A stretch of DNA of 64,000 nt from Myxococcales bacterium. Its GTDB lineage: Bacteria; Myxococcota_A; Polyangia; Palsa-1104; JAEUJZ01. The notes below the pieces were generated by a model, which saw nothing but the letters and a program-made list of their open reading frames with translations, made no database searches and was not told where the DNA came from. The stretch spans positions 136 through 64,135 of the forward strand of contig JAEUJZ010000049.1 of the NCBI GenBank assembly GCA_016794505.1, read 5' to 3'. Below are positions 12,701 to 54,323 of this stretch, in pieces; positions within the stretch are counted from its first letter, which is position 1; each line of letters starts with the position of its first letter. A program made the translations under genes and the position numbers.

Positions 12701-13738
12701 GTGCCGATCTTTGCGCAATCCACCGAGCGCTCTCTGCGGGTATCTAGGCCTGTATTGGCCCCCGCGGCGGTTCCTGCCGATCCGTCGATATTTACCCCCA
12801 AGCTTACGCGGCAATCTTCGACCCGTCGACAGCCGGCTGTAGAGCCCGCGTTTGCCGGTATCGAGGCGCGGCCTTTCCTAAAGTGGGCGGGAGGCAAGCG
12901 ACAGCTCTTGCCGCAGCTTCTGTCGCGCGTGCCGGGGGCTTTCCGCCGCTACCACGAGCCATTTGTCGGTGGCGGGGCGCTGTTCTTCGCGCTACAAGCC
13001 CGGCAGCAGCTGCCGCAGGGGGCGCGGCTTTCGGATATCAACCCCGAGCTGGTGAATGCCTATCAGGTCGTCCGCGATCGCGTCGAGACCTTGATTGTTC
13101 TACTTGGTGCATTTCGCAATGAAGAGGATTTCTATTACGAAATCCGCGCGCAAGATCCCCAGACCTTAGATCCGGTACAGCGAGCCGCTCGTCTGCTTTA
13201 TCTAAACCGGACCTGTTTCAATGGTCTGTTTCGGGAAAACCGCGATGGCCGCTTCAATGTGCCGTTTGGGCGCTATCGCAATCTGCAGATCCTGCGAGAG
13301 AACGATCTGCGCGCCGCCAGCCGGGCCCTGCGCGGCATCTGCATCGAGCAGTCTTCGTTCGACGCGCTGGCCGACTGCGTCGAGCCGGGCGACTTCGTGT
13401 ACTTCGACCCGCCCTATGCGCCGCTGTCGCGTACGGCTTCGTTCACGTCGTACAGTCGAGGCGGCTTCGACGATGAGGCGCAGCGACGCCTGGGGGCGCT
13501 GGTGCGTGCGCTTTCGGCTCGCGGCGTTCACGTGCTTTTGTCGAACTCGTCGGCGCCGCTCATCTTCGACATCTATGACCACCCCGAGCACTTGGTCGAG
13601 CAGGTGCTGGCATCGCGCGCCATCAACAGCCGCGCCGACCGCCGCGGCAAAGTCCACGAAGTGCTGGTCGCCGCCGGCCCCCACGTCGACAGCCTGCGCC
13701 GCCGCCAAGCCTCCCAGCCGCTCTCGCTGTCTGCCTAG
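12701..13738 (+). CDS. Dam-family (D12 class) N6-adenine DNA methyltransferase, orphan
   Basis: RPFLKWAGGKRQLLPQL and DPPY motifs, collinear with E. coli Dam; no adjacent restriction endonuclease; GTG start, so the N-terminal extension is uncertain. Confidence 0.75.
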   Translation: MPIFAQSTERSLRVSRPVLAPAAVPADPSIFTPKLTRQSSTRRQPAVEPAFAGIEARPFLKWAGGKRQLLPQLLSRVPGAFRRYHEPFVGGGALFFALQARQQLPQGARLSDINPELVNAYQVVRDRVETLIVLLGAFRNEEDFYYEIRAQDPQTLDPVQRAARLLYLNRTCFNGLFRENRDGRFNVPFGRYRNLQILRENDLRAASRALRGICIEQSSFDALADCVEPGDFVYFDPPYAPLSRTASFTSYSRGGFDDEAQRRLGALVRALSARGVHVLLSNSSAPLIFDIYDHPEHLVEQVLASRAINSRADRRGKVHEVLVAAGPHVDSLRRRQASQPLSLSA

Positions 13739-14098
13739 CCAGCAGTTGGGCGGTCGCCCGCTGCAGCCTCGTTTCATGCTTTCTGTCACAGCTCCCAACG
13801 GCCATGACTGTCAGCCGAGCAAGGCGTGCGCCACGCAGTGTGGTGTGATAGCGCGCAGACCTTGCTGGCGCTGCGGGTCGGCCAGGCGATGTGCGGCACC
13901 GTCGCAACGGCGAGTCGGAGCAGCTTTCTTTGCGCGATCGCAGTCGATGCATGAGCGGCTGCGCGGGTCGAACGAACGCACTCGTGGGTTGAGCGGCCGC
14001 GTCGGCTTTCCACGGACTCCGACCGCCGGCTCGACGTCGCTCCTTCGTAGACTTGGCTTGCCGAGACGCGAATCCTGCTGCGAAGGTTATCGGAAGCG

Positions 14099-14125
14099 GA
14101 AGGTGTTTAATTTAAAAACACCTTC
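14099..14125. terminator. AT-rich perfect hairpin between the convergent Dam and C39-like genes (candidate bidirectional terminator)
   Basis: 10-bp stem gaaggtgttt/aaacaccttc with the 7-nt loop aatttaa; lies 3' of the minus-strand gene ending at 14167. Confidence 0.4.
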
Positions 14126-14166
14126 TTAGCCAGATCCGACTCATCTACGCTGGAAAATGGACCCAA

Positions 14167-15357
14167 TTATGCAGAATAGCCCTTGCGTGCAATCAGATCC
14201 GCGAGCTGATCAACGCCGAGCCAATATTGCGATTCGAAACCGGGGCGGTAATTGAACTTGGCAGGATCTGCGATAAGTGCAGCTTGCTCACTCTTATCGT
14301 ATCCGATGATACTTACATAGTGATAAATTGTCTCATCATCGGGATAGCCAGGAGGATTGGTATCGCCCGGCGGCGCAACAATATTGGCAACGATCGGATA
14401 GTTGTTATCGATGTCGGTGACGATGTCTTTCCACAAAAGATCGCGCTCTTCATCAGTCGCCGTTGCACCGGGAATGACCTTGTTTTCGTAATAACCAGTG
14501 CCCAGCCGTTCGTTTAGAGCCGACGTAATCAGGCCAATATGGGCTGTACCGACGACGTCGTTGGTGCCCAGCTGGTCGGCTAGCTCGCCCTGCGTCGGTG
14601 GGTTGTCCATCCGGGCCGACAGCGCAATTCGCGTCGAGGCCGGCCCGCACCAGTGACCCCATTCTTGCTGCTGGAAGTCGACATCGAGAATCTTGCGGTC
14701 CTCTTCGGTTGCTTCGGGACCACCGCCTCCCGTCTGCGGCATCGGAGCCCGTGCGGGCGGCGCGCCCCCACCCAGAGCGGGAGCAAAGTGCGAGACCTTG
14801 TGCCCCGCAGAGGCCTCCATTCCCGCCGTCGCAGCCGCCACTTTCTTCAGCAGATCGGCCTTCTTGCCATCGGGAGCCGCCTGGACCGCCGCCGCAAGGT
14901 TTTCCTTCAGAGCCGCTTTCTGTTCGGACGGGGCGTCCGGTCCCGTGGCCTTCGCTGCCCTCTTCGCCGCGATCGCGACTTTCTGGTCGGGAGGTGCCGC
15001 CTTTCCGAGCGTCTTGGCGGCCATCTTGGCGGCGAGCTCGACCTTTTGTGGATCGGGCGCAGTCTTGGACGCAGGTGCCCCACCGGGAGCCGCCCCAGCC
15101 TTCTGGGCGAGTGCTGGTTCCAGCTTGGCCAGCGCCTGAGGAGCCGCCTTGGCTGCACCGCCAGCATCGGTCATATGACCAAACAAGCTGGACAGAGCTT
15201 GGCTCGTCTTGGCCTGGGCCACAGGCTCGGCGACGGGTGCCGGAACGGCTGCGGACACAGGCGCGGCGGCCGATGGCGCAACCGACTTTGGAGCGGCACT
15301 GGACGGTGGGCTGGTCGGATGTACAGCAGCCTTCTTGAGCGCACCATCGAACGACAT
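14167..15357 (-). CDS. protein with Ala/Pro-rich low-complexity N-terminal half and C-terminal papain-fold cysteine peptidase domain (Peptidase_C39-like)
   Basis: Gln...WCGPAS...HYVSIIGYD arrangement (Gln/Cys/His); the C-terminal domain DNA (14167-14700) is clearly lower GC than the N-terminal-half DNA. Confidence 0.55.
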   Translation of the reverse strand: MSFDGALKKAAVHPTSPPSSAAPKSVAPSAAAPVSAAVPAPVAEPVAQAKTSQALSSLFGHMTDAGGAAKAAPQALAKLEPALAQKAGAAPGGAPASKTAPDPQKVELAAKMAAKTLGKAAPPDQKVAIAAKRAAKATGPDAPSEQKAALKENLAAAVQAAPDGKKADLLKKVAAATAGMEASAGHKVSHFAPALGGGAPPARAPMPQTGGGGPEATEEDRKILDVDFQQQEWGHWCGPASTRIALSARMDNPPTQGELADQLGTNDVVGTAHIGLITSALNERLGTGYYENKVIPGATATDEERDLLWKDIVTDIDNNYPIVANIVAPPGDTNPPGYPDDETIYHYVSIIGYDKSEQAALIADPAKFNYRPGFESQYWLGVDQLADLIARKGYSA

Positions 15358-15688
15358 GGAACAGTCCCCCGAAATGCTCGCAGCACAGCGAAATACTAAT
15401 AGTATCGCTGACTCAGCATTTCAGTTGCGCGGCTTTTTTCCGGTGATGTTCCCCCTACAGCGCGGCCCTTATCGCACTGGTTACCTCGATAGTCGTCTAC
15501 TGGTTCAATCCTATGTGCTCGGATATGGAGTCAGCGCCGAGCCCGCTGCACGGGTGACAAGCTACCTGTGCGCCGTGTTTTTCGGCGTGCTTCCGTTTGC
15601 GGCCTGGATGGTGCGATTGCGCGTTAGGCGCAACGCAGCGCTGCTCCGCTTGGCACATGCCGAGCGCGTCAGACCGCGACCGCGTGGG

Positions 15689-16612
15689 TCATGGCTTGGG
15701 GTGGGCCATTAGGAAGTCGTAGATGGAACCGGGCCACTGGGCGTTGAAGGCAGGAATGTGGCCGCCTCCTTCGAGGGTCCACAGCTCGACGGCCCCATCG
15801 CTGGCGCAGCCGGAATAGGACTCGACCTTGGTTTCCGCACCAGCCAGAGTGGACTCGATGTCGAGTCGGACGCCGTTCGTTGTGAGGGGGCCAAGGCAGG
15901 CGTTGCGGTTGGCCCAGATAGCGACGGTCTGGCGTGCCCCCGGTGTGAGCGGAGTGCCGTCATAGGCAACGTTGGTGTCGGCGGTGCCGTGGACTTGCAG
16001 CACCGAGACTTTGCCGACGGGACGACACTTGCTGGAATCAATCCACTGGCCACCGGCCAAGCTCACGATGCCAGCAATTTTCGCACTGCGATCACAGGCC
16101 ATGCGATGCGCCATGTAGCCGCCATTGGAGTGCCCCACGAGGAAGACCCGCTGGGGGTCGACCGTGTACCGGCTGGATAGGTCATCAATGACCGCGGTCA
16201 AGTAAGCAACGTCGTCGACCTTGCTACCAAAGAAATCGCAGCAGCCATCGGTGGCATTCCAAAAGCGCACGCCGACGGGGTCTTTGGTTCCATCCGGGTA
16301 GGCGTAGAGAAACGTGCGGGCATCGGCCAGCGGAGCCAGGTGCAGGACCAGCTCATTGAGCTCACCGCTGGCTGACAGACCGTGCAGCATCACGACAAGC
16401 GGAGTCGGTTTCTTGGCATCATAGCCCTTCGGTACTTTGTGCTTGTACGGGCGTGCCATGATCAGCGCGGCGGCTTCGGGGGACAAAGAAGCCGCTGCGG
16501 GCGGACTGCTGCCGGACGACGCTTGGCCGTCGCAAGCAGACAGACCGACAGCGAGTCCAGCCAACAACAGAGACAGTGGTGCCGCTCGGCGCATGAAGAC
16601 CCCTTTGCTCAA
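15689..16612 (-). CDS. lipoprotein alpha/beta-hydrolase (PHB-depolymerase/esterase family)
   Basis: signal peptide with lipobox LSAC; GHSNGG nucleophile elbow; VMLHG motif. Confidence 0.65.
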   Translation of the reverse strand: MSKGVFMRRAAPLSLLLAGLAVGLSACDGQASSGSSPPAAASLSPEAAALIMARPYKHKVPKGYDAKKPTPLVVMLHGLSASGELNELVLHLAPLADARTFLYAYPDGTKDPVGVRFWNATDGCCDFFGSKVDDVAYLTAVIDDLSSRYTVDPQRVFLVGHSNGGYMAHRMACDRSAKIAGIVSLAGGQWIDSSKCRPVGKVSVLQVHGTADTNVAYDGTPLTPGARQTVAIWANRNACLGPLTTNGVRLDIESTLAGAETKVESYSGCASDGAVELWTLEGGGHIPAFNAQWPGSIYDFLMAHPKP

Positions 16613-16710
16613 GCCATACTACAAAGAAAGCCTGGGCGTCTCGGGCAGTGCTACAAGCGGGTCGTGTTGTCTCTTTTGGCATGCTGCGCCTCTAGAGACA
16701 CTCCATCCGT

Positions 16711-17616
16711 CTAGCGGCTAGGCAGAGCCGGCTCGGTCTGTGCAGCCAATCGAGCGCCGCCGGCCCGCCCGCCTGAGCTGCTCGTCGCCTCGATTACCTG
16801 CACCAGCTTTGCCCACGTGCGGCCGCATGCGTCCAGTCGATCGCCGAAGTCGGCTGGGTTGAGCACGGTGGCCGTGATGAAACCGCAGTCATGCAGCGCA
16901 GCAGCGACGTCCTGCGAAGTTCCAACGTGAATATGCACGCGGCTGCGCACGAAGATCGAAAGCAGCAGCAAAAAGGCGTCCGTCATCGGCCCGTGGTTCG
17001 CGCTGTTTGTGTGGATGTCGGCAAGGTAGAGCCCATGCGGGAAGCCAGCGAGTGCGTGCGCGAAGCGGTCCCACATGCCGAGCACGTCGTCGCGGCCGAA
17101 ATAGTTGAGCAGGCCCTCGGTGACAATCGCAACGCCACGGGACGGATCGAGCGTCTTTACGAGCTCCGCCAGCGAGTCAGGTCCGTGGTCGGCCAAGGCA
17201 TTGACCGTCGTCACCCGGTGGTTGAGCGGTGTCGCGCCGAGCAGCTGGCGCTTGTGCGTGGCCATGCCCTGCAGGTCGGCCTCGATGTACGTGACGCGGT
17301 CACCGTACTTGCGGGTGATGCGCAGGCCACGTGGCGAGAGTCCGGCGGCGATCTCGATCACCTGCGATACCCGGCCAGCCTCAATGGCGTCGGTAAGGCG
17401 CAGGTCGATGAGTTCGTGGCGCGCCAGCAGAAAGTCCTCCAGCGTCGGGCCGCCTACCCACCTTGACACCGCCATGGCCGGGGCCAGCAGGTGCCAGAGG
17501 GCGTTGCCCTGCGGCGTGCTCAGTCGCTCGTCGGACAGACCGTTGCGCAGCCACACCTGCGCTGTGTAGTGAGCGGTTGGGCTGATGGTGGCGCTGTTGC
17601 GCGCGGAATCGCTCAT
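16711..17616 (-). CDS. class I SAM-dependent O-methyltransferase (leucine carboxyl methyltransferase / TcmP-like family)
   Basis: VIEIAAGLSPRG SAM-binding region; overall LCM-family layout. Confidence 0.55.
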   Translation of the reverse strand: MSDSARNSATISPTAHYTAQVWLRNGLSDERLSTPQGNALWHLLAPAMAVSRWVGGPTLEDFLLARHELIDLRLTDAIEAGRVSQVIEIAAGLSPRGLRITRKYGDRVTYIEADLQGMATHKRQLLGATPLNHRVTTVNALADHGPDSLAELVKTLDPSRGVAIVTEGLLNYFGRDDVLGMWDRFAHALAGFPHGLYLADIHTNSANHGPMTDAFLLLLSIFVRSRVHIHVGTSQDVAAALHDCGFITATVLNPADFGDRLDACGRTWAKLVQVIEATSSSGGRAGGARLAAQTEPALPSR

Positions 17617-17890
17617 CGGGGAACTCCGGCATCGCGGAAAGACGGCCACCCATCCTACTCGATGACCGAATCGTGGCCGGCCAAAGCGGTCTCCGGCGCT
17701 GCTGGCCAGTCATGCAGCCAGACCCCAGGATGGAAGTGGCGCCATGAGCCACCGGATCGAGCCTGCTCGGCCTAACGACTGCACCGGCATCCTTTGGGTG
17801 TTGCGCCCAAGCAGTCTTTGCGCCCCCCTCCGAATCCTCCAAATCGGAGGCCCTAGTTTCTCCCTCACCGGAGCTGCGGGGCGTTTGCTG

Positions 17891-18820
17891 CTAGTCGACC
17901 GACGCTGCCCCCCGGCGGCAAAAGCACACCACCAGCGCGGAGTAGAGCAGCAGGAAGGCGAGCGGTATCGTCACGGCCATCCGCAAGCTGTGCGCCTGTC
18001 GCAGCTCGGCTTCGGTCGCGAAGACCTCGACCGTGCGCTTTGCTGCACCTTCCGCAATCGCAATCCCGGCGCTCTGACACTTCGCGATCGCCAAAGCCAG
18101 TCCGGGACCGCACTCGACCGGGCCCGATCCAGTCCATGCCTCACTCGACAGCACCCATGCTCCGTTTTTGCGGGGCGGCGCCTGCATGCTCCGGCAGTGA
18201 AAGCCAACCACCTGCTGCACGGCGGGGTCGAACAGCGGGGTCACGATCATGCGGGTGGTCGAGGCGGACTTGCCCGAGCCGCGCTGCAGGCGGGCCCATC
18301 CCTCCTGATGGCGCAGATGGCGCAGCTCGCCAACGCGCAAGGCGATGATGTCGCTGCGTGGATCCCAGTCCGAAAGAGAGGGCTGTTCGACGATCGCAGC
18401 GTTTGCTGCGACGAGGGCGCGGTGACCTTCCAGCGCCATGCCCAGCGACGCGATGAAGCCGATTAGACCAGCGCCCACGCCCGCACCACCAATGCGCGAC
18501 GCAGCCCACGCACTGCCGCCAAGAAATATACCCAGGGCACCCAGGATCAGGCCAACCCACGGCCTCGATAGCGCTCCGGCGAACCCGACAACCCAGCCCA
18601 GAATCACAAACAGCGCACCGATCGCCAGCGCGCGGCGCACCCAGGCAAACGGTGACAGTGCAGGCTGGCTCACGCGTTCGGCTGAGCTCCCTGCTGTGCG
18701 GGTCGGGCAGCTGGCCACAGCGTGGCCGCAAGATCGCGCGCAAGGAACGACACCCAGGATGCTTGAGACGCGTACGGGCCCACCAAATCCAGAGTGCATG
18801 CAAGGCGCCACTCTGCACAA
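17891..18820 (-). CDS. hypothetical integral membrane protein
   Basis: several predicted TM helices (ALAIGALFVILGWVVGFAGAL, LILGALGIFLGGSAWAA); long ORF, but GC-rich ORF artefacts are possible. Confidence 0.35.
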   Translation of the reverse strand: MCRVAPCMHSGFGGPVRVSSILGVVPCARSCGHAVASCPTRTAGSSAERVSQPALSPFAWVRRALAIGALFVILGWVVGFAGALSRPWVGLILGALGIFLGGSAWAASRIGGAGVGAGLIGFIASLGMALEGHRALVAANAAIVEQPSLSDWDPRSDIIALRVGELRHLRHQEGWARLQRGSGKSASTTRMIVTPLFDPAVQQVVGFHCRSMQAPPRKNGAWVLSSEAWTGSGPVECGPGLALAIAKCQSAGIAIAEGAAKRTVEVFATEAELRQAHSLRMAVTIPLAFLLLYSALVVCFCRRGAASVD

Positions 18821-19230
18821 GCCGCTCGCGCGAACCGTGGGCCAACGCGTCCGCTGGGCGAGTCGGTCCCGTGCGGACCAAGCGCCTCTACGGCAACCCG
18901 TTCTTCGCCACGCAGCTTCTGCGCACGCTTTACGAGGAGAAACAGATCTTCTTCGACGTCGACGCTAGCGCCTGGACGTGGAGCATCGAGAGCTGGAGCA
19001 AGCTGGCGCTCGCCGACAGCGTCGTCGAATTCATGTCGGGCCGGAGCAAGCTCTTGTCCGCGGACGCGCAGGAGGCGCTCAAGCTCGCGTCCTGCAGCGG
19101 ACACTCATTCAGTCAACGCTCGACGGCGGAAGTGTCCCGTTGACCACTCCGCTCCTCCGTCTTGCCGCTTGAGGTCCTGGCTCACGTTGGCAGCCCGCTG
19201 CTCGGACTCTGTCGGCGCAGGGCTGCAGGG

Positions 19231-22125
19231 CTAGGGGACGACGATCGGGAACAGGTTCAGATCGACCGCCAGGAAGGCCCCGACGCGGATCATCGAGAAC
19301 GGATCGCTGTGCTCCATCGGCTGGTTGTCGACATAAAAGTACGTGCGTAGCTGCGGTGCATACGACGCGCCCACGCCGAAGGTAAGCGGCGTCTTGTCGG
19401 CGCCGAACTTGAGGTACAGGCCCGGCGACAGCACACTCAGAAAGCTGACTTCGCTGGCGACGTTGACCCGCGTCTGCGTGTTGGTCATGGTGTTGGCCGG
19501 CTGTCCGTTGTTGCTCACCCGCGCCCAGGCAAGCTGTCCGACGTCCAGCACCGTGGCAAAGAAGCCCCAGGACCAGTTGCGGTTGTGGTGAACGGGGAAC
19601 TGCAGATCCAGGCCCAGCGCCGCCATGGGGCCGAGCGCGAAGCCGCCCGCGAGACCCGGCTGCGAATAGCCGGGCGCCACCACTTCACCGCCGATCTGCA
19701 CGCCGACCACGCCGGTCACGGTGAGGCTGGTGCCCTGTCGCTTGCTGCGCCACGAACCGACTGGCGCCGCCGCCGCGCTGAGCGCCGCCGAGACATCCTT
19801 GGGATCCTTGGCCGCGGCCAGATCCGAAATGAGCGTGATGTATTTCCGTACGCTGTCGGGCAGGCTGGCTGTCTCGCCGACCGCGGCCAGGGCCACCAAG
19901 ACCTGACGAACGCCGTCGGCATAGGCGCCGCGCAGCATGTCTTGGCTGGCGTGCATCAGCGAAAGCAGCGCGTCGAGCTTGGGCGTATCTCGGACCGCGA
20001 CCAGCGTGGCGCCGGACTCGATGAGGTCGGCCACCAGACTCAGCGTCTCGGCGGCAACCTGTGCGGCGGGTGGAGGGCTGCCAGTACGCCACTTTTGAAT
20101 CCGCTGTTCCAGATCAAACACCGCCAGCGCCAGCGCCCGTACTTCGCGATAGCCCTTCTCATTGGAAGGCGTGCTTGAGCACGTTACATTCTGTGTGTTG
20201 GTAAAGAATTCTTTTAGTGGGCTTGGGATCTTGTCTTCGCCACCGAAGAATCGCCCAATAATGATGTGATCCGCTGGCGAAACACCAAGCTGCTTCAGTG
20301 CAGTGCAGACCGTCTCTTCATTCCATGTCAAGGAACCAGAGGCATGCACACTGCTTTGAATCGCGGCCACCAGGCCGCCAAACCGACTGGCGAACACGCT
20401 GGTTGCGGCAATTGCGCAGAAGGCATCCATGCCCTGATCGCTCGCAGCGTCAATCGCATGGGCGCATAGCGACTGTGAATCCAGGGTCGAATAGGCTTTT
20501 CCTAGCGTCGTACCCAACCCTGCCAGCAGCTCAAGAGCGGGTGTTCCCTTGCGCAGCCCAGCGAACACCGAATAGAGCCCCTCGACGGTATATGTGGCAG
20601 CGATGGCCATGCGCAGCTCTCGCGTCGGCACCGTCGCCGGCCAGAGCAGATCGATCGTCACGTGAAACAGGGACGCCGTGTTTTGCATCACCGAGTCAGC
20701 ACTGGGGTTACGGGCTAGCGCATTAATATAGTCATACGTCAATACCAACTCTTCCAGCTCTGGGGGTGTGGCGGGAGAGGCTTCGCACGAGAGGGGAGTC
20801 TCGGGCTTGAGCAGCTTCTGCATTTTTTCGGAGAGATGCGAAAAAACCGTGGGCTTCGTCAGGTCGACGATGTACTGTAGGGTTTTGTCGCGTAGAACGG
20901 TAGTCACAGTCTTGCAAAACTCACCGCGGTTCTTGGGTTTTGACTTCATGACTGTGGTGACTAGTTCCAGCAAACGATGGGCAAGCACCAACTGACATTT
21001 GTGTGTATGCCAAAGGCCATTCGGATTGTCTTTGGTGTCTTCGCATTGCGTTTCAATAGCTTTGGCTGGATTGGGGATCACGTGGGAAACTGCGTCCGCA
21101 ATGCGATGGACATCGCGCTGGCGCAGGGCCTGCAGCAAGTGGCTGATATTCCCACCCAATCCATACAGATATCCAAAGCTGGCAATCGGCATGCCTTCCA
21201 AGTCCGCACGGATCGCCGAAGAAAGCAGCGCACCGTGGCTGGCTGGCGAGTCCTCTGTCGCGCTTAGCAGCGAGCAGGTCTGAGGAAACAGCGCAGACGA
21301 TTCTGCGCACAGCTTCTTTTTAAACGCAGACACGAACCAGAGCACAAGCTCTTGATTGGCGCGATCCACCATAAAATCCGCCAGGCCGGTCACAAGGGTG
21401 CCTTGCCAAGACATGCCACTGGCGCTGCCTGCCGTAGTCGGTGGCGGTGATCCGCCGCGTTCCGCAAGAGTGGCCTTCCCCCACGCATTACATTTGGCTC
21501 TTAGAGCCTTCTCTTCTTGCGTTGAGAGGGGGGCCGCGGGAAGCTTGAGGTATGATTTGAATTCCAGTAACTTGTTGGAAGAGATGTGGTTGACGGCTGC
21601 CAGGAATATTTCGATATATCTGGTCGCTAGAATCACATGAGCTTCACTGAGAGGTTTCTTATCGTACGTCGCAAGGCTATCAGATAATGCCTTGACCTGT
21701 TCGGCGGTAGCATAGAGCTTCTTGCGCTCGATGTCTACTTCCTTGTCTGCTTGGGCCTTTTCGCCATCAAAGTATTGTTGCAGTAAGGAACCCAATTCTT
21801 TCTTGTCACGCTGACTAATTTGCAATATTGTATATAATTTGGTGTCTTTATTAGATCTGTTTTCCGCGACGCGTACCCAAATGCCAATATCATTTCCTCC
21901 TTCGGGAGATTTGTTTAGTTCTTGCTTTGCTGCATGCGCGATAGATTCTATATCTGCGAGCCTTAGAATGGATTCGCACGATGGTATGCTGGTTGGCGGT
22001 GTTGCCAGGGGAATCGGCTGCAACCGCATAGGTGCTGCTTGTGCGGGGTATGAAATAGACAGCAGGACAAAGGCCACGATGTGGCCTAGCGCTGTGCGTA
22101 TAGATGGATATTTCCGGGGCATCAT
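19231..22125 (-). CDS. large (964 aa) secreted protein of unknown function with possible C-terminal beta-strand-rich (barrel-like) region
   Basis: N-terminal signal peptide; alternating hydrophobic pattern in the last 190 aa ending LNLFPIVVP; strong GC gradient (5' coding end about 45% GC, 3' end about 70%). Confidence 0.6.
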   Translation of the reverse strand: MMPRKYPSIRTALGHIVAFVLLSISYPAQAAPMRLQPIPLATPPTSIPSCESILRLADIESIAHAAKQELNKSPEGGNDIGIWVRVAENRSNKDTKLYTILQISQRDKKELGSLLQQYFDGEKAQADKEVDIERKKLYATAEQVKALSDSLATYDKKPLSEAHVILATRYIEIFLAAVNHISSNKLLEFKSYLKLPAAPLSTQEEKALRAKCNAWGKATLAERGGSPPPTTAGSASGMSWQGTLVTGLADFMVDRANQELVLWFVSAFKKKLCAESSALFPQTCSLLSATEDSPASHGALLSSAIRADLEGMPIASFGYLYGLGGNISHLLQALRQRDVHRIADAVSHVIPNPAKAIETQCEDTKDNPNGLWHTHKCQLVLAHRLLELVTTVMKSKPKNRGEFCKTVTTVLRDKTLQYIVDLTKPTVFSHLSEKMQKLLKPETPLSCEASPATPPELEELVLTYDYINALARNPSADSVMQNTASLFHVTIDLLWPATVPTRELRMAIAATYTVEGLYSVFAGLRKGTPALELLAGLGTTLGKAYSTLDSQSLCAHAIDAASDQGMDAFCAIAATSVFASRFGGLVAAIQSSVHASGSLTWNEETVCTALKQLGVSPADHIIIGRFFGGEDKIPSPLKEFFTNTQNVTCSSTPSNEKGYREVRALALAVFDLEQRIQKWRTGSPPPAAQVAAETLSLVADLIESGATLVAVRDTPKLDALLSLMHASQDMLRGAYADGVRQVLVALAAVGETASLPDSVRKYITLISDLAAAKDPKDVSAALSAAAAPVGSWRSKRQGTSLTVTGVVGVQIGGEVVAPGYSQPGLAGGFALGPMAALGLDLQFPVHHNRNWSWGFFATVLDVGQLAWARVSNNGQPANTMTNTQTRVNVASEVSFLSVLSPGLYLKFGADKTPLTFGVGASYAPQLRTYFYVDNQPMEHSDPFSMIRVGAFLAVDLNLFPIVVP

Positions 22126-22140
22126 TTGGACTCTCCTTGT

Positions 22141-23304
22141 TTACCCACGTACTTCTAGGGAAAGGCTGGTAAAGATCGCGCCGTCGACCCGCACGTACAA
22201 AGAGCCGCGTGGCGACTGCAGGTGCCAAAACGGCAGCGTCGGTGAGCAGGACTGCAGGCAGGGCTGCCAGACAAGCTCGGGGCGAAGCAGAGGCAAGTCG
22301 CGCAGCCAGGAACGATACCTGGCTATTGAGGGATCGCGCAACAGGTGTGGCAACAGCTGTACTAGAGAAGGAAGTAGCTGAAGGCGAGGCTCAGTCAGTG
22401 TATGATAACTTAACAATGTGCCATCATGCGCGTCGAATGCGGCGACCCCATGGATCAATCGCTCGGACGTCATGGGAACCAATGCATAGTATTTGTTCCC
22501 TTGATCGAGATAGCGCACAAAGCGTGGAATTCCGACATCCAGCAAGCGATGCACATCATCCAGACGGTGCATCTCTGCAGCCAGCGCGGGATACATGGCG
22601 AGCGTTTTCTGGACGAGAGAGAGTAATTCGTCGGTTTTGAGTCGTCGTCGACGCAATGATGAAGGGATCAGCTTCGGAAAGCGCGGCAATGGAACCGCGG
22701 GCGACTGCGCGCTGCACAGTGCGACATATTGCTCCACGAAGCCAGTGGCGGCACAGGTGATTGGAAATGAATATTGAGTAATCCAAGAATTATATGTGAC
22801 ATATACGCGGCCATAGCCATGAGCAGCGTTGCACTGATCGCTGTCACTGTGATTTCCAATGGATTTATGGAATGGAATATTTAGCCATAAGCCTTGCATG
22901 CCATATCCATATGGATCGTCGGGCGTGTTGTCTAATAGAACGCCTTGCACTACAGACCAGTGGTGATTTTTGTATATGGGAACAACGCAGGGACGGCGAT
23001 GCGTGACGATCGTGTCAATGATATAGTGCAATGAGTCGTATACGGTTTCAAATTGCGAATATGAGTATTTGAATGCATCGTCCCGTGGCAATAACTCGTT
23101 AATGGCCGCGGTGAGCCCTGCTGGATCTGAATGCCAGGTAGAATCCTGTTTGTTGTGTTCGATAATCTCAGCAATTTGCGCTTGATTGACGGTTTGACTG
23201 GGGACGCCCTGCGTCGCTAGCAGCATCATGGCGCTTGCCGGACCACAGTATGTTCGACCGTCTTGATGGTGATACTTACAAGTCACTTCTTGTTGCCAAG
23301 TCAT
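22141..23304 (-). CDS. papain-fold cysteine peptidase-domain protein (Peptidase_C39-like N-terminal domain plus unknown C-terminal domain)
   Basis: HHQDGRTYCGPASAMMLL ... NHHWSVVQGV; low-GC DNA; 15-bp gap to the downstream 964-aa gene (operon). Confidence 0.55.
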   Translation of the reverse strand: MTWQQEVTCKYHHQDGRTYCGPASAMMLLATQGVPSQTVNQAQIAEIIEHNKQDSTWHSDPAGLTAAINELLPRDDAFKYSYSQFETVYDSLHYIIDTIVTHRRPCVVPIYKNHHWSVVQGVLLDNTPDDPYGYGMQGLWLNIPFHKSIGNHSDSDQCNAAHGYGRVYVTYNSWITQYSFPITCAATGFVEQYVALCSAQSPAVPLPRFPKLIPSSLRRRRLKTDELLSLVQKTLAMYPALAAEMHRLDDVHRLLDVGIPRFVRYLDQGNKYYALVPMTSERLIHGVAAFDAHDGTLLSYHTLTEPRLQLLPSLVQLLPHLLRDPSIARYRSWLRDLPLLRPELVWQPCLQSCSPTLPFWHLQSPRGSLYVRVDGAIFTSLSLEVRG

Positions 23305-23544
23305 CGAAGCCTCGTGTGATCAGAGAGAGGGTTTGAGAGTCGGAGTATGCGTGAATCGCGCAGCGAGCTGAGCCGAGGCAGAGCAACCATTGTGCCATTT
23401 TACGCAGGGGAGGACGCGGAGGGATTTGCGCGGGTCTGCGCAAAGACTGCAGGCAAGCTGGCTGCCTGCGAACAAGCTGCGGGCAGGCAGGCGAGGGGCG
23501 ATACCACGAAGCCACGGGAAATGCGGGCTGCTGCGCGATGCCGC

Positions 23545-25092
23545 TTATTCCCACTCGATGGTGCCGGGGGGCTTGCTGGTCAGGTCGTAGACGACGCGGT
23601 TGATGCCGGCGACTTCGTTGACGAGCCGGCTGGCGATGGCTTTGAGGTCCGAAAGAGGAAGCTCGCTGGCCTCGGCGGTCATGGCGTCGACCGAGGACAC
23701 GGCGCGGATGCACAGGGCTGACTCATAGCTGCGGCTGTCGCCCATGACACCGACGCTGCGAACCGGCAAAAGCACGACGAAGGCCTGCCAGGTGCGGTCG
23801 TACAAGCTGCGGGCCAGAAGCTCGTCGTGGAAGATGGCGTCGGCGCGGCGCAGGATCTCGATGCGATCGGGCTCTAGCGGGCCCAGGCAGCGAATGGCCA
23901 GGCCGGGGCCGGGGAAGGGATGCTGGTGCAGGATGTATGGGTCGATGCCGAGCAAGGCGCCGATCTCGCGCACCTCGTCTTTGAAGAAGCGGCGCAGCGG
24001 CTCGATCAGCTGCAGGCGGTTCCACTCGTCGGGAAAGCCACCGACGTTGTGGTGGCTTTTGATGGTGTGGGCGCGGGCCAGCTTGTTGTCGGCGCTTTCG
24101 ATGACGTCGGAATAGATCGTGCCCTGCGCCAGGTGCGAAAACTGGCTGTGGCCGACGTGATCGGCGAAGGTCTCGACGAACAGGCGGCCCATACCGCGGC
24201 GCTTGGTCTCGGGGTCGGCGATGCCGGCCAGCGTCCCCCAGAAGCGATCCTTGGCGTCGATGACTTCCAAGCGAATCGTCGGGTACTGGTCAAAGACGCG
24301 CCGCAGGTTGGTCAGGTCATAGGCGCGCAAAAAGCCGTGATCGACGAACAGCGCACGCACGTGGGTGACCTTGGACAAGAGCACGGCCATCACCGTTGAG
24401 TCGACGCCTCCTGAGACGGCGCAGACGACCTCGGGCACGTGGGCTAGCTCGACGCGAAGCTGGGCCTGCACGTGCTCAAGCTCGCTGCGCAGGTTCCAGT
24501 CGGGCGACAGGCGACAGATGTCGCGGGCGAAGGCCTCAAGCAGCACCTTGCCCTCGGGCGTGTGATAGACCTCGGGGTGGAACTGCAGACCCCACAGGCG
24601 GCGGCCTGGACCCAACGAGGTCTCGACGCGAAAGGCCGATGGCTTGCCGTTTGACTCCAGCAACAAGGTGGCGCCAGCGGGCAGCGCGACGACCGAGTCG
24701 CCGTGGCTCATCCAGACCTGCGTCTTTGGCGACAGCTTGGCCGTCAGAAGATCGCTGCGGCCGGCCGGCGTCTTTTGCACCTGCGCCGCGCCGTACTCGC
24801 GATGCGTGGCGCAGACGACCTGGCCACCGAGCACCTTGGCTAGCCACTGATAACCAAAGCACAGACCCAAGATGGGAATGCCCAGATCCAAGATGGCGGG
24901 ATCGGGATCGTGTCCCTGTCCCACGCTGGCGGGTGAGCCCGACAGAATGATGCCGTCGGGACGCGGCGTGCGCTGGGCCAAGGTGCGGGCGTCGGTCTGA
25001 CCGGATAGCACCTCGGTCGCGAAGCCCTGGCTGCGCAGGCGACGGGCGATGAGCTGGGTGTACTGCGAGCCAAAGTCGAGGACGGCGATCAT
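23545..25092 (-). CDS. guaA: GMP synthase (glutamine-hydrolysing)
   Basis: class-I glutamine amidotransferase N-terminus [20 protein letters not shown] plus ATP-PPase/GMP synthase C-terminal domain ending TIEWE. Confidence 0.9.
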   Translation of the reverse strand: MIAVLDFGSQYTQLIARRLRSQGFATEVLSGQTDARTLAQRTPRPDGIILSGSPASVGQGHDPDPAILDLGIPILGLCFGYQWLAKVLGGQVVCATHREYGAAQVQKTPAGRSDLLTAKLSPKTQVWMSHGDSVVALPAGATLLLESNGKPSAFRVETSLGPGRRLWGLQFHPEVYHTPEGKVLLEAFARDICRLSPDWNLRSELEHVQAQLRVELAHVPEVVCAVSGGVDSTVMAVLLSKVTHVRALFVDHGFLRAYDLTNLRRVFDQYPTIRLEVIDAKDRFWGTLAGIADPETKRRGMGRLFVETFADHVGHSQFSHLAQGTIYSDVIESADNKLARAHTIKSHHNVGGFPDEWNRLQLIEPLRRFFKDEVREIGALLGIDPYILHQHPFPGPGLAIRCLGPLEPDRIEILRRADAIFHDELLARSLYDRTWQAFVVLLPVRSVGVMGDSRSYESALCIRAVSSVDAMTAEASELPLSDLKAIASRLVNEVAGINRVVYDLTSKPPGTIEWE

Positions 25093-26576
25093 GAGCCACT
25101 CTGCCCGGACGCGCCGGAGTAGTTGGGCGCCTCTGCGGTGATGGTGACGTCGTGGACGTGACTTTCACGCAAGCCGCCGGGGGTCAGACGTCGGAAGCGC
25201 GCCTTGCGCTTTAGCTCGTCGAGATCGCGAGCGCCGACGTAGCCCATGCCGGCGCGCAAGCCCCCCATAAGCTGTTCCACGACCTGCTTGAGCGGGCCGC
25301 GATAGGGCACGCGCGCCTCGACGCCTTCGGGCACCAGCTTGCCGGTCTGATCGACGTCTTGCTGACGATAGCGGTCGCGGCTGCCTTTCTTCATCGCGGC
25401 CAGCGAACCCATGCCGCGATACGACTTGTAGCTTCTGCCTTGGTACAGGACGATTTCGCCTGGGCTCTCGTCGGTGCCGGCGAACAGGCTGCCGATCATG
25501 ACGGCATCGGCGCCGGCCGCCAAGGCCTTGGTGATGTCGCCAGAATAGCGGACACCGCCGTCGGCAATGATGCCGATACTCGGCTCGCCTGGCTTGCGGG
25601 GATGGCGCTGGCGCACGGCCTCGGCGACTTCGACGACGGCGCTCCACTGCGCGACGCCGACGCCGGACACGACGCGCGTTGTGCAGATGGATCCAGGGCC
25701 CATGCCGATCTTTACGATCGATGCGCCGGCCTCGACGAGCGCGAGGGCTCCTTCGGCGGTTCCGACGTTGCCACCGATGATCGGCAGCGCGGGATAGCGA
25801 CTGCGCAGCATGCTCAGTGTGCCAAGTACCCCGTCGCTGTGCCCATGTGCTGAGTCAAGCACCAGGCAGTCCACGCCGGCTTCGACCTGCATGGCCGCGC
25901 GGTGCAGGCCTTCATCGCCAACGCCAATGGCGGCGGCAACCATTAGGCTGCCTTGCGAGTCGCGCAGCGAAAACGGGTGCGACTCGGATTCGCGCCAGTC
26001 GCGCGAGGTGATCAGCCCACCCAGCTTGCCCTCCGCATCGACAAGAGGGAGCTTTTCCAGCTTCCACTTGCGAAAGAATGCCTCGGCGTCGGCGCGCGTG
26101 GCCGAGATCGGCAGGCTGTGTACCGGCGTCGACATGATGTCGGCAACCTTGGCCTTGCCATCGGTGACATAGCGAATATCGCGCCCGGTGCAGATACCGA
26201 CCAGCACGCCGCGATCGTCGACAACTGGGAAGCCAGTCACGCCGCTCTCGGCGATCAGCTGATGCACTTCTTCGATCGTCTGGTTGGCCTTGATCGTAAG
26301 CGGGCTGTGGATGACGGCGTGCTGGAACTTCTTTACGCGTCGCACCATGCGCGCTTGCTCTTCCGGTGGGCAGTTGCGGTGAAGGACGCCCAGGCCTCCG
26401 AACAGCGCCATCGCGATCGCGGTCTGTGATTCGGTGACGGTGTCCATGGCGGCGGACAAAAGCGGAATCTTTAGGCGCAGAGTTCCAAGCTGCGTCTCGA
26501 TCTGGCATTCCGACGGCAACACCTGCGAGAAGCCGGGCATCAAGAGTACGTCGTCGAAGGACAGCGACAGCTCCAT
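25089..26576 (-). CDS. guaB: IMP dehydrogenase
   Basis: [15 protein letters not shown] start; CBS pair; catalytic loop [11 protein letters not shown]; overlaps the guaA start by 4 bp. Confidence 0.9.
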
Positions 26577-26789
26577 GGCTTCCCCGGCGAAGCTGGGCGG
26601 CGGCGGCGTCCCCTGCGAGGCGTGCGGCCCAAGCGGGCTGAGCGCTGCATTCGACGACGTAGAACTGTGACGAACGTGTGACGGAAATGGCGGCTCAGAA
26701 GAGGGCGGGTTCGGCATGGCCCGCTCGTATACACAAAGCCTCGGCCATAGTCATTGAGCATTTGACAGCGTCGCGGTACGTTAAGAACG

Positions 26790-52209: not shown

Positions 52210-52568
52210 TGAACCGCGTCGCCAGCAAGCCCCATCCCCGCAGCAAGACCCCACGCATCGTCGCCACGTTAGACTTGGCAAGCGAAGACCAGCGACGACT
52301 TCACGATCTGCTACACCGCTTCCACTCTGGCCGCTGGCCGCTGTTTCGGTGCCTGGGAATGCGACAGATCAACGGCGTGCTCTGTGAAGCCGTGGAGTGG
52401 CTACGGGTGGCCAAGCCCAGTTTTGGCGTGGTGACGTGGCGATCGGACGGGCTCGGGCTGTCGTGGCGCGATGCAGGGAGCGCCCAGGAGGCCAAGGTCA
52501 ATCTCATGCGCAGCGCGGCGAAGGCAGCCTCAGCGACGGTCGGAATAAAAAATGGAATAAAAGTATAG
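52210..52568 (+). CDS. hypothetical protein (first gene of rightward operon)
   Basis: SD gagggagg, 6 nt, then ATG at 52210; no recognisable motifs. Confidence 0.4.
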
Positions 52569-52636
52569 CCAGTAGGTAAACCTCGTGGTACTGACTCCTC
52601 AGTTTTCCTGGTTCACAGGTTACGCGAGGAGTATCG

Positions 52637-53257
52637 ATGCTTTATACCAAGGACCAAGTCGCCGAAATTGTCGCCCCCCATGTCCATAATCTCAGGGAGT
52701 GCGTCAATGGCGGCTGGTGTCAGTACCGCCGTGACTATTCAGCAGAACTCAGAAAAGTTCACTCAGCGCGGGCCAGGGCATCCGTCGTCCATGATCACAT
52801 TGTCCAGACTGCCGTGCGGAATCTGGAGGGCGTGCCTGGTATCAGAGTCCCTCTCTATCATTCTGGGCGTCCACTGCTGATTGAGATCGACAAAAAACTG
52901 ACGGTGCGATTTAAGAAACTCGACAACGAACGCCGTCCGCGAAACATCATGACCAGGCAGCAGCGCGGGCTCCTTGCCCAAGCCACCCTGCCACACATAG
53001 AAGGCACCATGCATCTTGTGGTCGGCTATGAGCTGGACCAGTTGCAACAGAATATCGCGCATATTTCGTTGCTCTGCCCTCATCCCACTAGGCTCTCTCC
53101 GCTATGGGATTTGCCACTCGATGACCGACTGAATGGCTTTGATAGCATGCCGCTGTTTACACACGCTACCCAAGCCCAGGATAACCCGGCGAATCTTATT
53201 ACCATTCGTCCTGATGCTGCTCGGAAGGAGGGGCGCGAACGCAATGGAAACAAATAG
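52637..53257 (+). CDS. hypothetical protein (206 aa), lower-GC DNA
   Basis: ORF overlaps the downstream gene start by 14 bp; no recognisable motifs. Confidence 0.45.
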   Translation: MLYTKDQVAEIVAPHVHNLRECVNGGWCQYRRDYSAELRKVHSARARASVVHDHIVQTAVRNLEGVPGIRVPLYHSGRPLLIEIDKKLTVRFKKLDNERRPRNIMTRQQRGLLAQATLPHIEGTMHLVVGYELDQLQQNIAHISLLCPHPTRLSPLWDLPLDDRLNGFDSMPLFTHATQAQDNPANLITIRPDAARKEGRERNGNK

Positions 53258-54314
53258 CGTCAACTACAAGATGGTCACACTTGCGCGTCAATCACGCGGA
53301 TTGACACAGAGCGAAATGGCAGAGCGTCTCGGTGTTACTCAAAGCAAGTTATCCAAGATTGAAGGGGGTCTTCTGAGTGTTTCCGGTGACATGCTGACTG
53401 GATTCAGCAAACTTCTGGACTATCCGGTCAGCTTCTTTATGCGACAAGATGAAATCTATGGCATTGGCTCAAGCCTGTTGTTTCATCGGAAACGGGAGAA
53501 TGTACCAGCCAAAACTCTCGATTGCATGCATGCGATGATCAACATTCGACGAATTGAGATATCGCGAATGTTGCTCTCGCTGAATCCTCCGCCATGCAAG
53601 GTTAAAAGGCTTCTAATTGATGAGTTCGACGGTAACGTCGAACGCATCGCCGCGATTGTGCGCGACGCATGGATGCTACCCAGGGGCCCTGTGGATAATT
53701 TAACGCGGCGCATTGAGTCTGCCGGTGGGATAATAATCAAATGCAATTTGGGAACCAGGCAGATTGACGCAATAGGACATTGGCCGCCGGCCATGCCGCC
53801 CATGATATTTGTTAATCAGGATATTCCAGCAGATCGTTATCGCTTCACTGTCGCTCATGAGCTTGGGCATCTTGTGATGCACGATTCACCAAACCCAGAC
53901 ATGGAGGCTCAGGCAGATCGGTTTGCGGCCGAGTTCCTGATGCCGACTGAGCAAATACTACCTGATTTGTATAATATCACTCTGCCGAAGTTGGCGGAGT
54001 TGAAGGCGTACTGGAAAGTGGCCATGAGTTCGCTATTAAGAAAGGCGCGCGATTGTAATCGCATTTCCCAAAACCAGTACAAATACCTTACGATCCAGAT
54101 GTCCAAAATGGGTTATCGGACAAGCGAGCCTGTTATTTTGCCATCCGAGGAACCCACCGTGCTGGATGGTCTTACCCAATTACATTTAACATCATTGGGC
54201 TACTCCATTGATGAATTGACGCGGATAATGGATCTTAATAAGGAGGAATGCACATCTATTTATGTCCGACCGACTCAGCCGCGCCAAGGAACAGGTCATT
54301 TGCGGCTGGTTTGA
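53244..54314 (+). CDS. XRE-HTH fused to an ImmA/IrrE-family (COG2856, DUF955) zinc metallopeptidase
   Basis: N-terminal HTH LARQSRGLTQSEMAERLGVTQSKLSKIE; HEXXH motif TVAHELGHLVMH; SD ggaaggagggg before the ATG. Confidence 0.8.
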   Translation: METNSVNYKMVTLARQSRGLTQSEMAERLGVTQSKLSKIEGGLLSVSGDMLTGFSKLLDYPVSFFMRQDEIYGIGSSLLFHRKRENVPAKTLDCMHAMINIRRIEISRMLLSLNPPPCKVKRLLIDEFDGNVERIAAIVRDAWMLPRGPVDNLTRRIESAGGIIIKCNLGTRQIDAIGHWPPAMPPMIFVNQDIPADRYRFTVAHELGHLVMHDSPNPDMEAQADRFAAEFLMPTEQILPDLYNITLPKLAELKAYWKVAMSSLLRKARDCNRISQNQYKYLTIQMSKMGYRTSEPVILPSEEPTVLDGLTQLHLTSLGYSIDELTRIMDLNKEECTSIYVRPTQPRQGTGHLRLV

Positions 54315-54323
54315 CGAGGCATT

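Follow-up and report, generated by a model that had tools for sequence, protein, structure and literature searches.

A variable gene pair downstream of guaA

The stretch analyzed here, 64,000 nucleotides of contig JAEUJZ010000049.1 from a Myxococcales bacterium (hereafter the window), contains two adjacent genes that encode a predicted cysteine peptidase (gene 1) and a large, predicted exported protein (gene 2). The pair was found to be a hypervariable allelic cassette, of which two of the three allele types occupy the same slot between guaA and the methyltransferase gene dam. The source record of both proteins is a Myxococcales metagenome-assembled genome. The pair is composed as follows, in window positions.

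22141..23304, minus strand: gene 1, predicted cysteine peptidase of 387 aa with no signal peptide (MBL9004680.1, JNJ46_10555, publicly annotated as 'hypothetical protein'); open reading frame (ORF) with an exact public match
19231..22125, minus strand: gene 2, predicted exported protein of 964 aa (MBL9004679.1, JNJ46_10550, publicly annotated as 'hypothetical protein'); ORF with a public record
22131..22138, minus strand: Shine-Dalgarno-like AAGGAGAG, 5 nt before the ATG of gene 2 and within the 15-bp intergenic gap; read from the sequence

The two ORFs lie on the same strand, 15 bp apart, as an earlier note on this DNA had described, and directly follow guaB-guaA. A strong ribosome-binding site (AAGGAGAG) precedes gene 2, and no terminator-like site was found between the two genes. 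Rfam and repeat scans of 18500-23800 gave no RNA element and no flanking direct or inverted repeats. The slot is delimited by the features below, and its spacer after guaA (23305..23544) exhibited neither an Rfam match nor a terminator.

25089-26717, minus strand: guaB, upstream flank on the same strand as the pair; IMPDH Pfam family on the syntenic genes of loci L134 and L138
23545-25092, minus strand: guaA, upstream flank on the same strand as the pair; GMP-synthase Pfam family on the syntenic genes of L134 and L138
23305..23544, minus strand: spacer of 240 bp from the guaA stop to the peptidase start; sharp 5' edge of the variable island
12701..13738, plus strand: dam, D12-class (Dam-like) DNA methyltransferase (PF02086, E = 3e-57); conserved downstream flank, adjoining gene 2 directly in L134 and L138
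13741..19196, no strand: strain-specific insertion of 5.46 kb between gene 2 and dam, absent from L138 and L134

Conservation of the neighborhood, which the earlier note had proposed to examine, was observed within limits: the pair recurs in L037, L138, L134, and L001-L005, but among approximately 90 family loci a big protein follows the peptidase only in these Myxococcales loci. L037 and L138 are syntenic with the window, approximately 93-94% identical to it in nucleotides, and carry the same allele (A). L134 carries allele B in the same order of guaB, guaA, peptidase, big protein, and opposite-strand dam as in the window and L138, and L001-L005 carry allele C in another context, with PALP upstream and FG-GAP downstream. 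This known sample consists of three allele types from five genomes or contigs. Adjacency, order, strand, and a gap of 3-15 bp were kept in the three alleles at 36-50% identity, and all known close homologues of gene 2 (at least 48% identity) follow a peptidase.

The divergence of the pair contrasts with the conservation of its flanks. Between the window and L134, amino-acid identity was 94.5% for GuaB, 93.2% for GuaA, and 90.2% for Dam, whereas it was 36.4% for the peptidase and 47.5% for the big protein; within the latter it was 28% in the N-terminal module, 41% in the middle, 65% at residues 651-795, and 77% in the C-terminal beta domain. The nucleotide identity of the flanks (86.5% over 3.8 kb, and 83%) ends upstream at 23546, the last base of guaA, and reappears, at 74%, only within the final 950 bp of the big gene. 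The variable stretch thus begins abruptly at the guaA end, whereas its 3' edge is graded and falls inside gene 2. The three alleles differ from one another to about the same degree, with identities of 36-42% for the peptidase, 20-50% for the first two thirds of gene 2, and 64-77% for the beta domain, its most conserved part. The N-terminal module shares 20-34% between allele types, and 78% even between genomes that are 94% identical.

The same contrast was obtained within one allele type, where synonymous divergence (dS) of the window from L037/L138 amounted to 0.11-0.21 for the four flanking genes compared and to 0.06-0.09 over the big gene's 3' half, versus 0.42 in the peptidase N-domain and 0.72-0.74 at residues 33-232 of the big protein. 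The ratio of nonsynonymous to synonymous divergence (dN/dS) was 0.06-0.23 throughout, and both genes are under purifying selection within one allele type; positive selection as the driver of the divergence was rejected on these values.

Base composition follows the variable part. The earlier note had reported a fall in G+C content (GC) from about 0.70 across the pair; the dip is real (0.44-0.58, with a local minimum of 0.443 at 21600-21999), but the flanks were measured at 0.61-0.69 and the background at approximately 0.63-0.66. In 1-kb windows, GC averaged 0.629 over all 64 kb (standard deviation 0.037), and only 20751-23750 and 52501-54750 go below 0.56. The compositional mosaic ascribed to gene 2 holds at synonymous sites, as GC at third codon positions (GC3) was 0.49 for residues 1-232, 0.63 for residues 233-650, and 0.83 for residues 651-964, compared with 0.495 for the peptidase N-domain and 0.73-0.86 for the flanking genes. 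Low GC3 tracks the variable part also in alleles B and C, more weakly, and does not do so in the wider peptidase family; low GC as a general family property was rejected, since GC3 was approximately 0.85 in other high-GC hosts.

Because the same guaA-dam slot is occupied in related genomes, the pair is regarded as a resident locus. The horizontal acquisition that had been supposed for it is consequently retained only in part, for deeply different alleles that were exchanged or have diverged. By blastn, L138 aligned to window positions 33310-19197 at 94% identity and to 13740-8382 at 92.7%, and in L138 only 115 bp separate these two segments. As the 5.46-kb insertion of the window stands directly after the big gene, the slot is considered to be an insertion hotspot.

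The cysteine peptidase and its wider family

Gene 1 divides into two domains, and the sequence patterns described below indicate an intracellular cysteine peptidase of clan CA (C39_2-like).

22705..23304, minus strand: peptidase N-domain, residues 1-200, predicted to be papain-like / C39_2-like
23263-23265, 23245-23247, and 22960-22962, minus strand: codons of the predicted catalytic residues Gln14, Cys20, and His115, respectively
22144..22704, minus strand: peptidase C-domain, residues 201-387, tentatively PepSY-like; conserved columns of the family alignment

The Gln...Cys...His arrangement seen by the earlier note is present, Cys20 being located in YCGPAS and His115 in HHWSVV. In an alignment of 67 family members the three columns are kept in 60 (Gln14), 64 (Cys20), and 66 (His115), and the residues also occur in alleles B and C after correction of mis-called starts. 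Their order and spacing (YCGxA, HWxVV), together with the predicted cytoplasmic location, are those of peptidases C39 and C39_2. A C39-like assignment was borne out at the level of sequence and profile: residues 10-98 matched PF13529 (Peptidase_C39_2) at E = 4.1e-5 with 24.6 bits against a cutoff of 24, which is marginal but consistent, and the 67 members gave Pfam matches to the papain clan only (C39_2 23, counted for PF13529 at E<0.01; DUF3335 9; Phytochelatin 3; C39 2; Guanylate_cyc_2 2). When the family profile was compared by hhalign with the unambiguous C39_2 protein of the window, the Cys region was aligned at a probability of 77% (E = 2e-5); below threshold, the profile also aligned with phytochelatin-synthase-like and PCAT structures. 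An AlphaFold2 model of the peptidase, computed from a 3-sequence alignment, was unusable as a fold at a predicted local distance difference test (pLDDT) score of 38.1, so that the structure prediction advised by the earlier note left the papain fold unconfirmed. NCBIfam, PADLOC, and PDB sequence searches with the peptidase gave no match, and PDB sequence and profile searches with the peptidase, its C-domain, and the gene 2 protein gave nothing significant.

The maximum 19-residue Kyte-Doolittle hydropathy of the peptidase was 1.06, consistent with the reported lack of a signal peptide, and no hydrophobic segment was found; almost all relatives likewise carry no export signal. Since the catalytic domain stands at the very start of these proteins and no hydrophobic stretch accompanies it, they are predicted to be intracellular. 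The peptidase differs from C39 and C39_2 enzymes in having neither a fused or neighboring ATP-binding cassette (ABC) transporter nor an evident leader-peptide substrate; no ABC domain was found in the peptidase by Pfam or in the neighboring ORFs, and no leader-type peptide gene is present there. It further differs in a C-domain of 190 aa that is unknown in C39, in the extra conserved residues His152, Asp156, and Cys158, and in Ile143. The 67-sequence alignment also showed Trp174, Trp346, Pro348, Cys349, Ser352, Pro358, Phe359, and the C-terminal Gly to be near-invariant, as are His152, Asp156, and Cys158. At the third catalytic position, the motif x-[DN]-P is replaced by Ile143 ahead of the invariant Pro144, where 53 of 67 relatives have Asn/Asp. 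Ile143 is common to all alleles of the Myxococcales clade.

An exhaustive phmmer search gave 398 representative clusters (at 50% identity) at E<=1e-3 and 124 at E<=1e-10. Because these relatives are almost all 380-420 aa long and are matched over their full length, from residue 1 to approximately 382, they are considered a real two-domain family. Gene 1 is a full-length member (hmmsearch E = 1e-102, positions 1-392 of the hidden Markov model, HMM) that contains all the family motifs, namely YHxQD..YCGxA, HWxVV, PPPH..D.CG, and LVWxPCxxSxSPxxPF..YVRxDG, and shares the C-terminal Gly. The large extra C-terminal domain described in the earlier note is located at residues 201-387, with the motifs V.RLD....YaLVP...DAhdG and LVWqPC.qS.SP.LPF...YVRVDG.iF..L and a Gly at the protein end. 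PepSY was the sole recurrent Pfam match of C-domain and partner sequences (5 of 30 sequences, with a best E of 0.0074; none reached the gathering score of 24 bits), and the peptidase of the window itself gave no PepSY (PF03413) match.

A scan of species-representative genomes with a degenerate DNA motif for W.PC.[EQ]S.SP..PF detected 120 loci from Proteobacteria, Actinobacteria, Acidobacteria, Planctomycetes, Bacteroidota, Cyanobacteria, archaea, and others. Of the 82 loci that extend far enough downstream, 55 have a small ORF paralogous to the C-domain (median 142 aa) immediately after the peptidase, starting at a median of 11 nt past the peptidase stop; all 55 of these partner-bearing loci have Asn/Asp at the position of Ile143. 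No other conserved neighbor of the family peptidases was found. In the window, no ORF for such a paralogue was detected by hmmsearch --max, and its position is taken by the 964-aa gene, an arrangement seen in one Myxococcales clade only; strongly reduced GC3 and extreme divergence likewise set this pair apart from the rest of the family. Among the loci with a GC difference above 3%, peptidase genes were poorer than their flanks in 38 and richer in 9. The literature search found no description of the peptidase family or of the gene pair, and the family, with its 398 clusters in many bacterial phyla and some archaea all carried as 'hypothetical protein', would be an open target for function discovery if these features hold.

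Several further observations were made on family loci. Small partners (L010-L129; for example, L083 3312-3815 and L112 3137-3631) often end in ...PGG or ...RGG, sometimes with a short tail, and often have Ser at the position of Cys349 in the peptidase C-domain, while family peptidases end in G or Gx. At L136 (4679-9171), a canonical peptidase and a 164-aa partner lie between two DDE_Tnp_1 transposase genes in a composite-transposon-like arrangement. Divergent peptidases without a downstream partner have a Lys-rich ORF of 113-125 aa immediately upstream (L060 1819-2193, L084 2560-2898, L117 2054-2404). The neighborhood of the nearest out-group peptidase (P0012, 30% identity; L135 2008-9697) contains, in order, a 1204-aa protein that has a signal peptide, matches FecR and TPR, and ends in ...VTVSF, an 80-aa Lys-rich peptide ending in ...GAQGGGGGICPIINGHRMC, the peptidase, and a CHASE2-cyclase downstream of it; this resembles the window pair in architecture as a single case, and the 1204-aa barrel protein was rejected as a homologue of gene 2 (hhalign probability 0.1%). 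The public calls of P0002 (L001 1913) and P0003 (L007 1534) start approximately 25 codons late and lose the region of the catalytic Cys, which an upstream in-frame ATG restores as MTW...YCGPA and MTT...YCGAA, respectively.

The exported protein

The product of gene 2 was divided into four regions on the basis of its sequence, its alignment, and a low-confidence model.

22036..22125, minus strand: predicted Sec-type signal peptide, residues 1-30 (MMPRKYPSIRTALGHIVAFVLLSISYPAQA, followed by AP); read from the sequence
21430..22035, minus strand: hypervariable N-terminal module, residues 31-232, Lys/Glu/Ser-rich and predicted helical, ending in ...LAERGG/SPPPTTAGSASG; most AT-rich part of the gene
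19741..21429, minus strand: Cys-rich, predicted alpha-helical region, residues 233-795; from the secondary structure of the low-confidence model and the Cys positions
19234..19740, minus strand: C-terminal beta domain, residues 796-964, following AAPVGSWRSKRQ; putative anchor in the form of a small outer-membrane beta-barrel

The signal peptide claimed for this protein could be read directly from the sequence, with an n-region containing R4, K5, and R10, an h-region at residues 12-26 whose core has a mean hydropathy of 2.42, and AQA/AP at 28-32. Equivalent signal peptides occur in all gene 2 homologues, and the protein is predicted to be Sec-exported. Twelve Cys residues between positions 50 and 649 correspond one-to-one among alleles A, B, and C; ten of them belong to residues 233-795, and Cys50 and Cys212 are located in the N-terminal module. 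A conserved patch in the helical region, GLADFMVDRANQELVLW...C...C, is also found in the distant relatives P0006 and P0007. A diverged small partner was sought at the N-terminus of gene 2 and rejected, as no HMM signal was obtained even with filters off.

An AlphaFold2 model of gene 2 from 8 sequences exhibited helices up to residue 795 followed by strands, which agrees with the helical middle and strand-rich C-terminus described earlier, although with a pLDDT of 43 it was unusable as a fold. The beta domain in this low-confidence model contains 6 long strands (pLDDT 57-76), and a dyad alternation of hydrophobic residues was observed in 6 of 7 candidate strands. Its top Foldseek matches were the OmpA transmembrane domain, OmpW, OprG, PagP, and PagL, all non-significant at E>1e-3. 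Together with the signal peptide, the predicted amphipathic strands, and the aromatic C-terminal motif of its relatives, they recall small outer-membrane barrels (OmpA transmembrane domain, OmpW/OprG, PagP/PagL) and proteins such as BcsC, PgaA, and PelB, in which a helical periplasmic domain is combined with a C-terminal barrel, and weakly suggest that the C-terminus may form a small amphipathic beta-barrel serving as an outer-membrane anchor. The protein differs from known barrel proteins in giving no Pfam or PDB sequence match and no TPR match, and in its non-aromatic end: distant relatives end in ...DLTLFPF or ...LLPF, whereas the window protein and alleles B and C have three extra residues (...LFPIVVP, ...LFPLVVR, and ...LFPIYVR, respectively). 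Its gradient from a variable N-terminus to a conserved C-terminus is like that of the passenger and barrel of autotransporters. However, with approximately 169 aa the beta domain falls short of the 12-18 strands that form the barrels of autotransporters (12-stranded domains of about 250-300 aa) and exopolysaccharide porins, and no autotransporter Pfam domain was matched at E<=1-5. Searches of NCBIfam and PADLOC with gene 2 also gave no match.

Homologues of gene 2 are very rare, and a metagenome scan with the beta domain retrieved four copies of one already-known relative. Similarity to distant relatives extends over the final 220 residues (approximately 34% identity) and one patch. Those at L006 70-3509, L008 1091-4484, and L130-L133 are 766-778 aa long, contain 10-11 Cys, and end in ...FPF or ...LPF; they have no peptidase neighbor and overlap an upstream DsbA/Thioredoxin_4 (DsbA-like) lipoprotein gene by 4-11 bp, which fits an oxidizing, exported location. 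At L009 (1633-8333), a 330-aa protein without a signal peptide corresponds to the last third of the big protein only. Ahead of it is a frame with a truncated trypsin-like motif (TAAHC...DYALIL), and after it come a CHAT protease and a NACHT-like STAND NTPase; the protein may be a fragment, decaying or put to new use, in the neighborhood of a conflict system.

Possible function of the pair and its surroundings

A mechanism can be inferred from these observations. The two genes would be co-transcribed, and the peptidase would act as a Cys-His dyad under the regulation of its own C-domain, Asn142 possibly standing in at the third position. The cassette would be swapped by recombination, with one breakpoint at the guaA end and a graded one inside gene 2, so that the envelope protein's variable N-module would be inherited together with the peptidase as a matched set; the exchanged unit would comprise the peptidase and two thirds of the envelope protein, as at loci under balancing selection. 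Since the big gene stands exactly at the position of the usual small partner, the N-module is proposed to have taken over that partner's role as an allele-specific binding partner or regulator of the peptidase, and would be neither a secreted substrate nor a pore. We tentatively prefer to read these matched sets, in which the variable N-module replaces the small regulatory partner, as serving a self/non-self or conflict function (recognition, exclusion, or toxin/immunity-like), a reading to which we give slightly less than an even chance. A narrower version, in which the pair is a previously undescribed polymorphic kin-recognition or toxin/immunity-like cassette whose allele-specific cognate sets are swapped at the hotspot after guaA, with the envelope protein replacing a small paralogous regulator, appears rather doubtful.

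Neighbors that are approximately 93% identical stand beside cassette genes at 36-48%, a pattern typical of balancing or frequency-dependent selection at loci for recognition, exclusion, or conflict. The social behavior of myxobacteria depends centrally on loci of this kind, of which few are known. The pair resembles the myxobacterial polymorphic loci (the traA variable domain, sitA/sitI) and polymorphic toxins in its deeply divergent alleles flanked by conserved sequence, in the purifying selection that acts on each of them, and in the concentration of variability in one module that adjoins a conserved anchoring part. This is a likeness of pattern only: there is no homology to those proteins and no recognizable toxin or immunity domain, and the variable part here is N-terminal and takes in an entire cytoplasmic enzyme. 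Neither Pfam, NCBIfam, and PADLOC nor the literature that was searched describes the two-domain family and its paralogous partner, the orphan envelope protein, or the hypervariable pairing, in line with the statement of the earlier note that no named system matches. The intragenic GC3 gradient from 0.49 to 0.83 would also be a clear natural case of a gene that contains a recombination breakpoint zone.

Several points weigh against a matched-set function. The peptidase and the gene 2 product are predicted to reside in different compartments, which makes a stable physical pairing hard to picture. Both structure models are unusable (pLDDT 38 and 43); the evidence for the papain fold, the PepSY label, and the barrel consists of sequence patterns and of matches below threshold. 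Three allele types from five genomes or contigs are too few for a statistical test of gene co-variation. The contiguous variability could simply reflect linkage in one recombination tract, and the raised dS could stem from a local mutation or composition effect instead of imported alleles. No toxin, immunity, or defense model of PADLOC matched either protein or the canonical family members. Finally, peptidase activity may be altered or lost, because Ile143 occurs where all 55 partner-bearing relatives have Asn/Asp.

If the linkage were fortuitous, the finding would shrink to two hypothetical genes in an insertion hotspot. That the two are unrelated cargo hitch-hiking after guaA, with the shared variability and low GC as an effect of the hotspot, seems unlikely, even though the slot accepts other DNA (the strain-specific insertion right after gene 2), the two products have different predicted compartments, and each family also occurs alone, the peptidases with small partners and the relatives of the big protein with DsbA-like genes. 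The conserved adjacency, order, strand, and 3-15-bp gap in three alleles as divergent as 36-50% identity argue for a link, as do the retention of the pair in a second genomic context (L001, between PALP and FG-GAP), the invariable position of the close gene 2 homologues behind a peptidase, and the purifying selection on both genes. A link could take the form of a toxin/antitoxin-like or defense cassette, in which the family peptidase is a growth-arresting effector, the small C-domain paralogue is its inhibitor, and the Myxococcales clade is a derivative that lost the inhibitor, attenuated the enzyme (Ile143), and became linked to an envelope sensor or anchor. Among known pairs, SpeB is inhibited by Spi, a homologue of its own propeptide, and staphopain genes lie next to those of staphostatins. 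The wider family, in which a papain-type enzyme lies beside a small relative of its own non-catalytic domain and a weak PepSY signal occurs, resembles SpeB/Spi, staphopain/staphostatin, and YpeB-SleB in this respect, but this is a likeness of arrangement and not of demonstrated homology, and the inhibitor-like partner is absent from the window. A self-contained two-gene cassette in variable contexts and many phyla, with one copy between two insertion sequence (IS) transposase genes (L136), HigB and helix-turn-helix (HTH) genes at L135, CHAT and STAND neighbors of related genes (L007, L009), and an excess of GC-poor peptidase genes (38 versus 9 loci), is consistent with such a role, as is the presence of Asn/Asp at 143 in all partner-bearing loci and its absence from the partner-less Myxococcales clade. 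Yet 22 partner-less loci still have Asn/Asp there, and only a single clade links residue 143 to the loss of the partner; PADLOC, NCBIfam, and PHROG-type annotation lend no support, growth arrest by the peptidase is a proposal only, and the hypervariability of gene 2 is left unexplained. This cassette is likewise unlikely.

The earlier note had itself suggested a protease paired with a substrate-like or translocator-like partner. This was not supported, and is disfavored because the predicted compartments differ, the barrel is small, and the usual partner is cytoplasmic; a beta domain of approximately 169 aa with 6-8 strands is too small for a translocation pore. As a module for maturation or release, the peptidase would cut the 964-aa protein, for instance after Gly-Gly 223-224, which divides the variable N-module from the conserved body, in analogy to double-glycine processing or to the release of LapA by LapG. 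C39-type enzymes cleave after Gly-Gly, and a GG precedes the conserved block by 4-14 residues in all alleles and in distant relatives (ERGG/SPPP, KPGG/STPT, PSLGG/SAG, PSLGG/ATE, and QSGG/AES). The tight linkage in three alleles and the 80-aa peptide ending in ...GAQGGGGGICPIINGHRMC ahead of the out-group peptidase of L135 also fit. However, the peptidase and nearly all its relatives have no export signal while gene 2 has an N-terminal Sec signal, and a cut at residue 224 before export would leave the barrel domain stranded in the cytoplasm. The residues ahead of the GG are unlike a double-glycine leader, a GG is expected by chance in a Gly/Ser/Pro linker, and the distant gene 2 homologues have no peptidase neighbor. 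LapG-LapA shares with the pair the combination of a papain-superfamily cysteine protease and a very large envelope-tethered protein, but LapG is periplasmic and of Peptidase_C93, and LapA is a type-1-secreted repeat adhesin, neither of which is found here; no Peptidase_C93 Pfam match was obtained, and no ABC transporter or LapD/LapG-type partner is present. A protease-substrate relation is therefore held to be quite improbable. A muralytic role is least credible and would be a surprise: a C39_2-like peptidoglycan peptidase, endolysin-like in its lack of a signal peptide, would be held inactive by PepSY-like domains and positioned or admitted by gene 2. YpeB controls SleB, and the weak recurrent PepSY matches, as well as YpeB and YpmB among the non-significant Foldseek matches of the poor peptidase model, point in this direction. 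In addition, lysins of phages that infect Gram-positive bacteria include Peptidase_C39_2 in their repertoire of enzymatically active domains (PMC8223927). The surroundings contain no holin, spanin, or phage genes, though, the family cassettes consist of two genes only, all the structural evidence lies below significance, and the model of the peptidase is unusable.

The insertion at 13741-19196 contains, besides a gene remnant, a second papain-like gene, an alpha/beta-hydrolase lipoprotein (15689-16612), an LCM-type methyltransferase (16711-17649), and an ORF for a 309-aa membrane protein (17891-18820). The papain-like gene (14167-15357, minus strand) encodes 396 aa, with an Ala/Lys/Pro-rich low-complexity N-terminus of approximately 240 aa followed by a full-length Peptidase_C39_2 domain (E = 3e-19), and its 3' end, which encodes that domain, falls in a patch of lower GC. 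The ORF at 18652-19143 (plus strand) contains ...GNPFFATQLLRTLYEEK... and has no Pfam match; by eye it is like a fragment of a large STAND/AAA-type regulator, and it is probably a pseudogene remnant. The second low-GC island of the window (52500-55270, GC 0.48-0.53) contains a 206-aa ORF, an HTH/ImmA-IrrE (Peptidase_M78) protein at 53133-54314, and an IS1-like transposase at 54359-55270.

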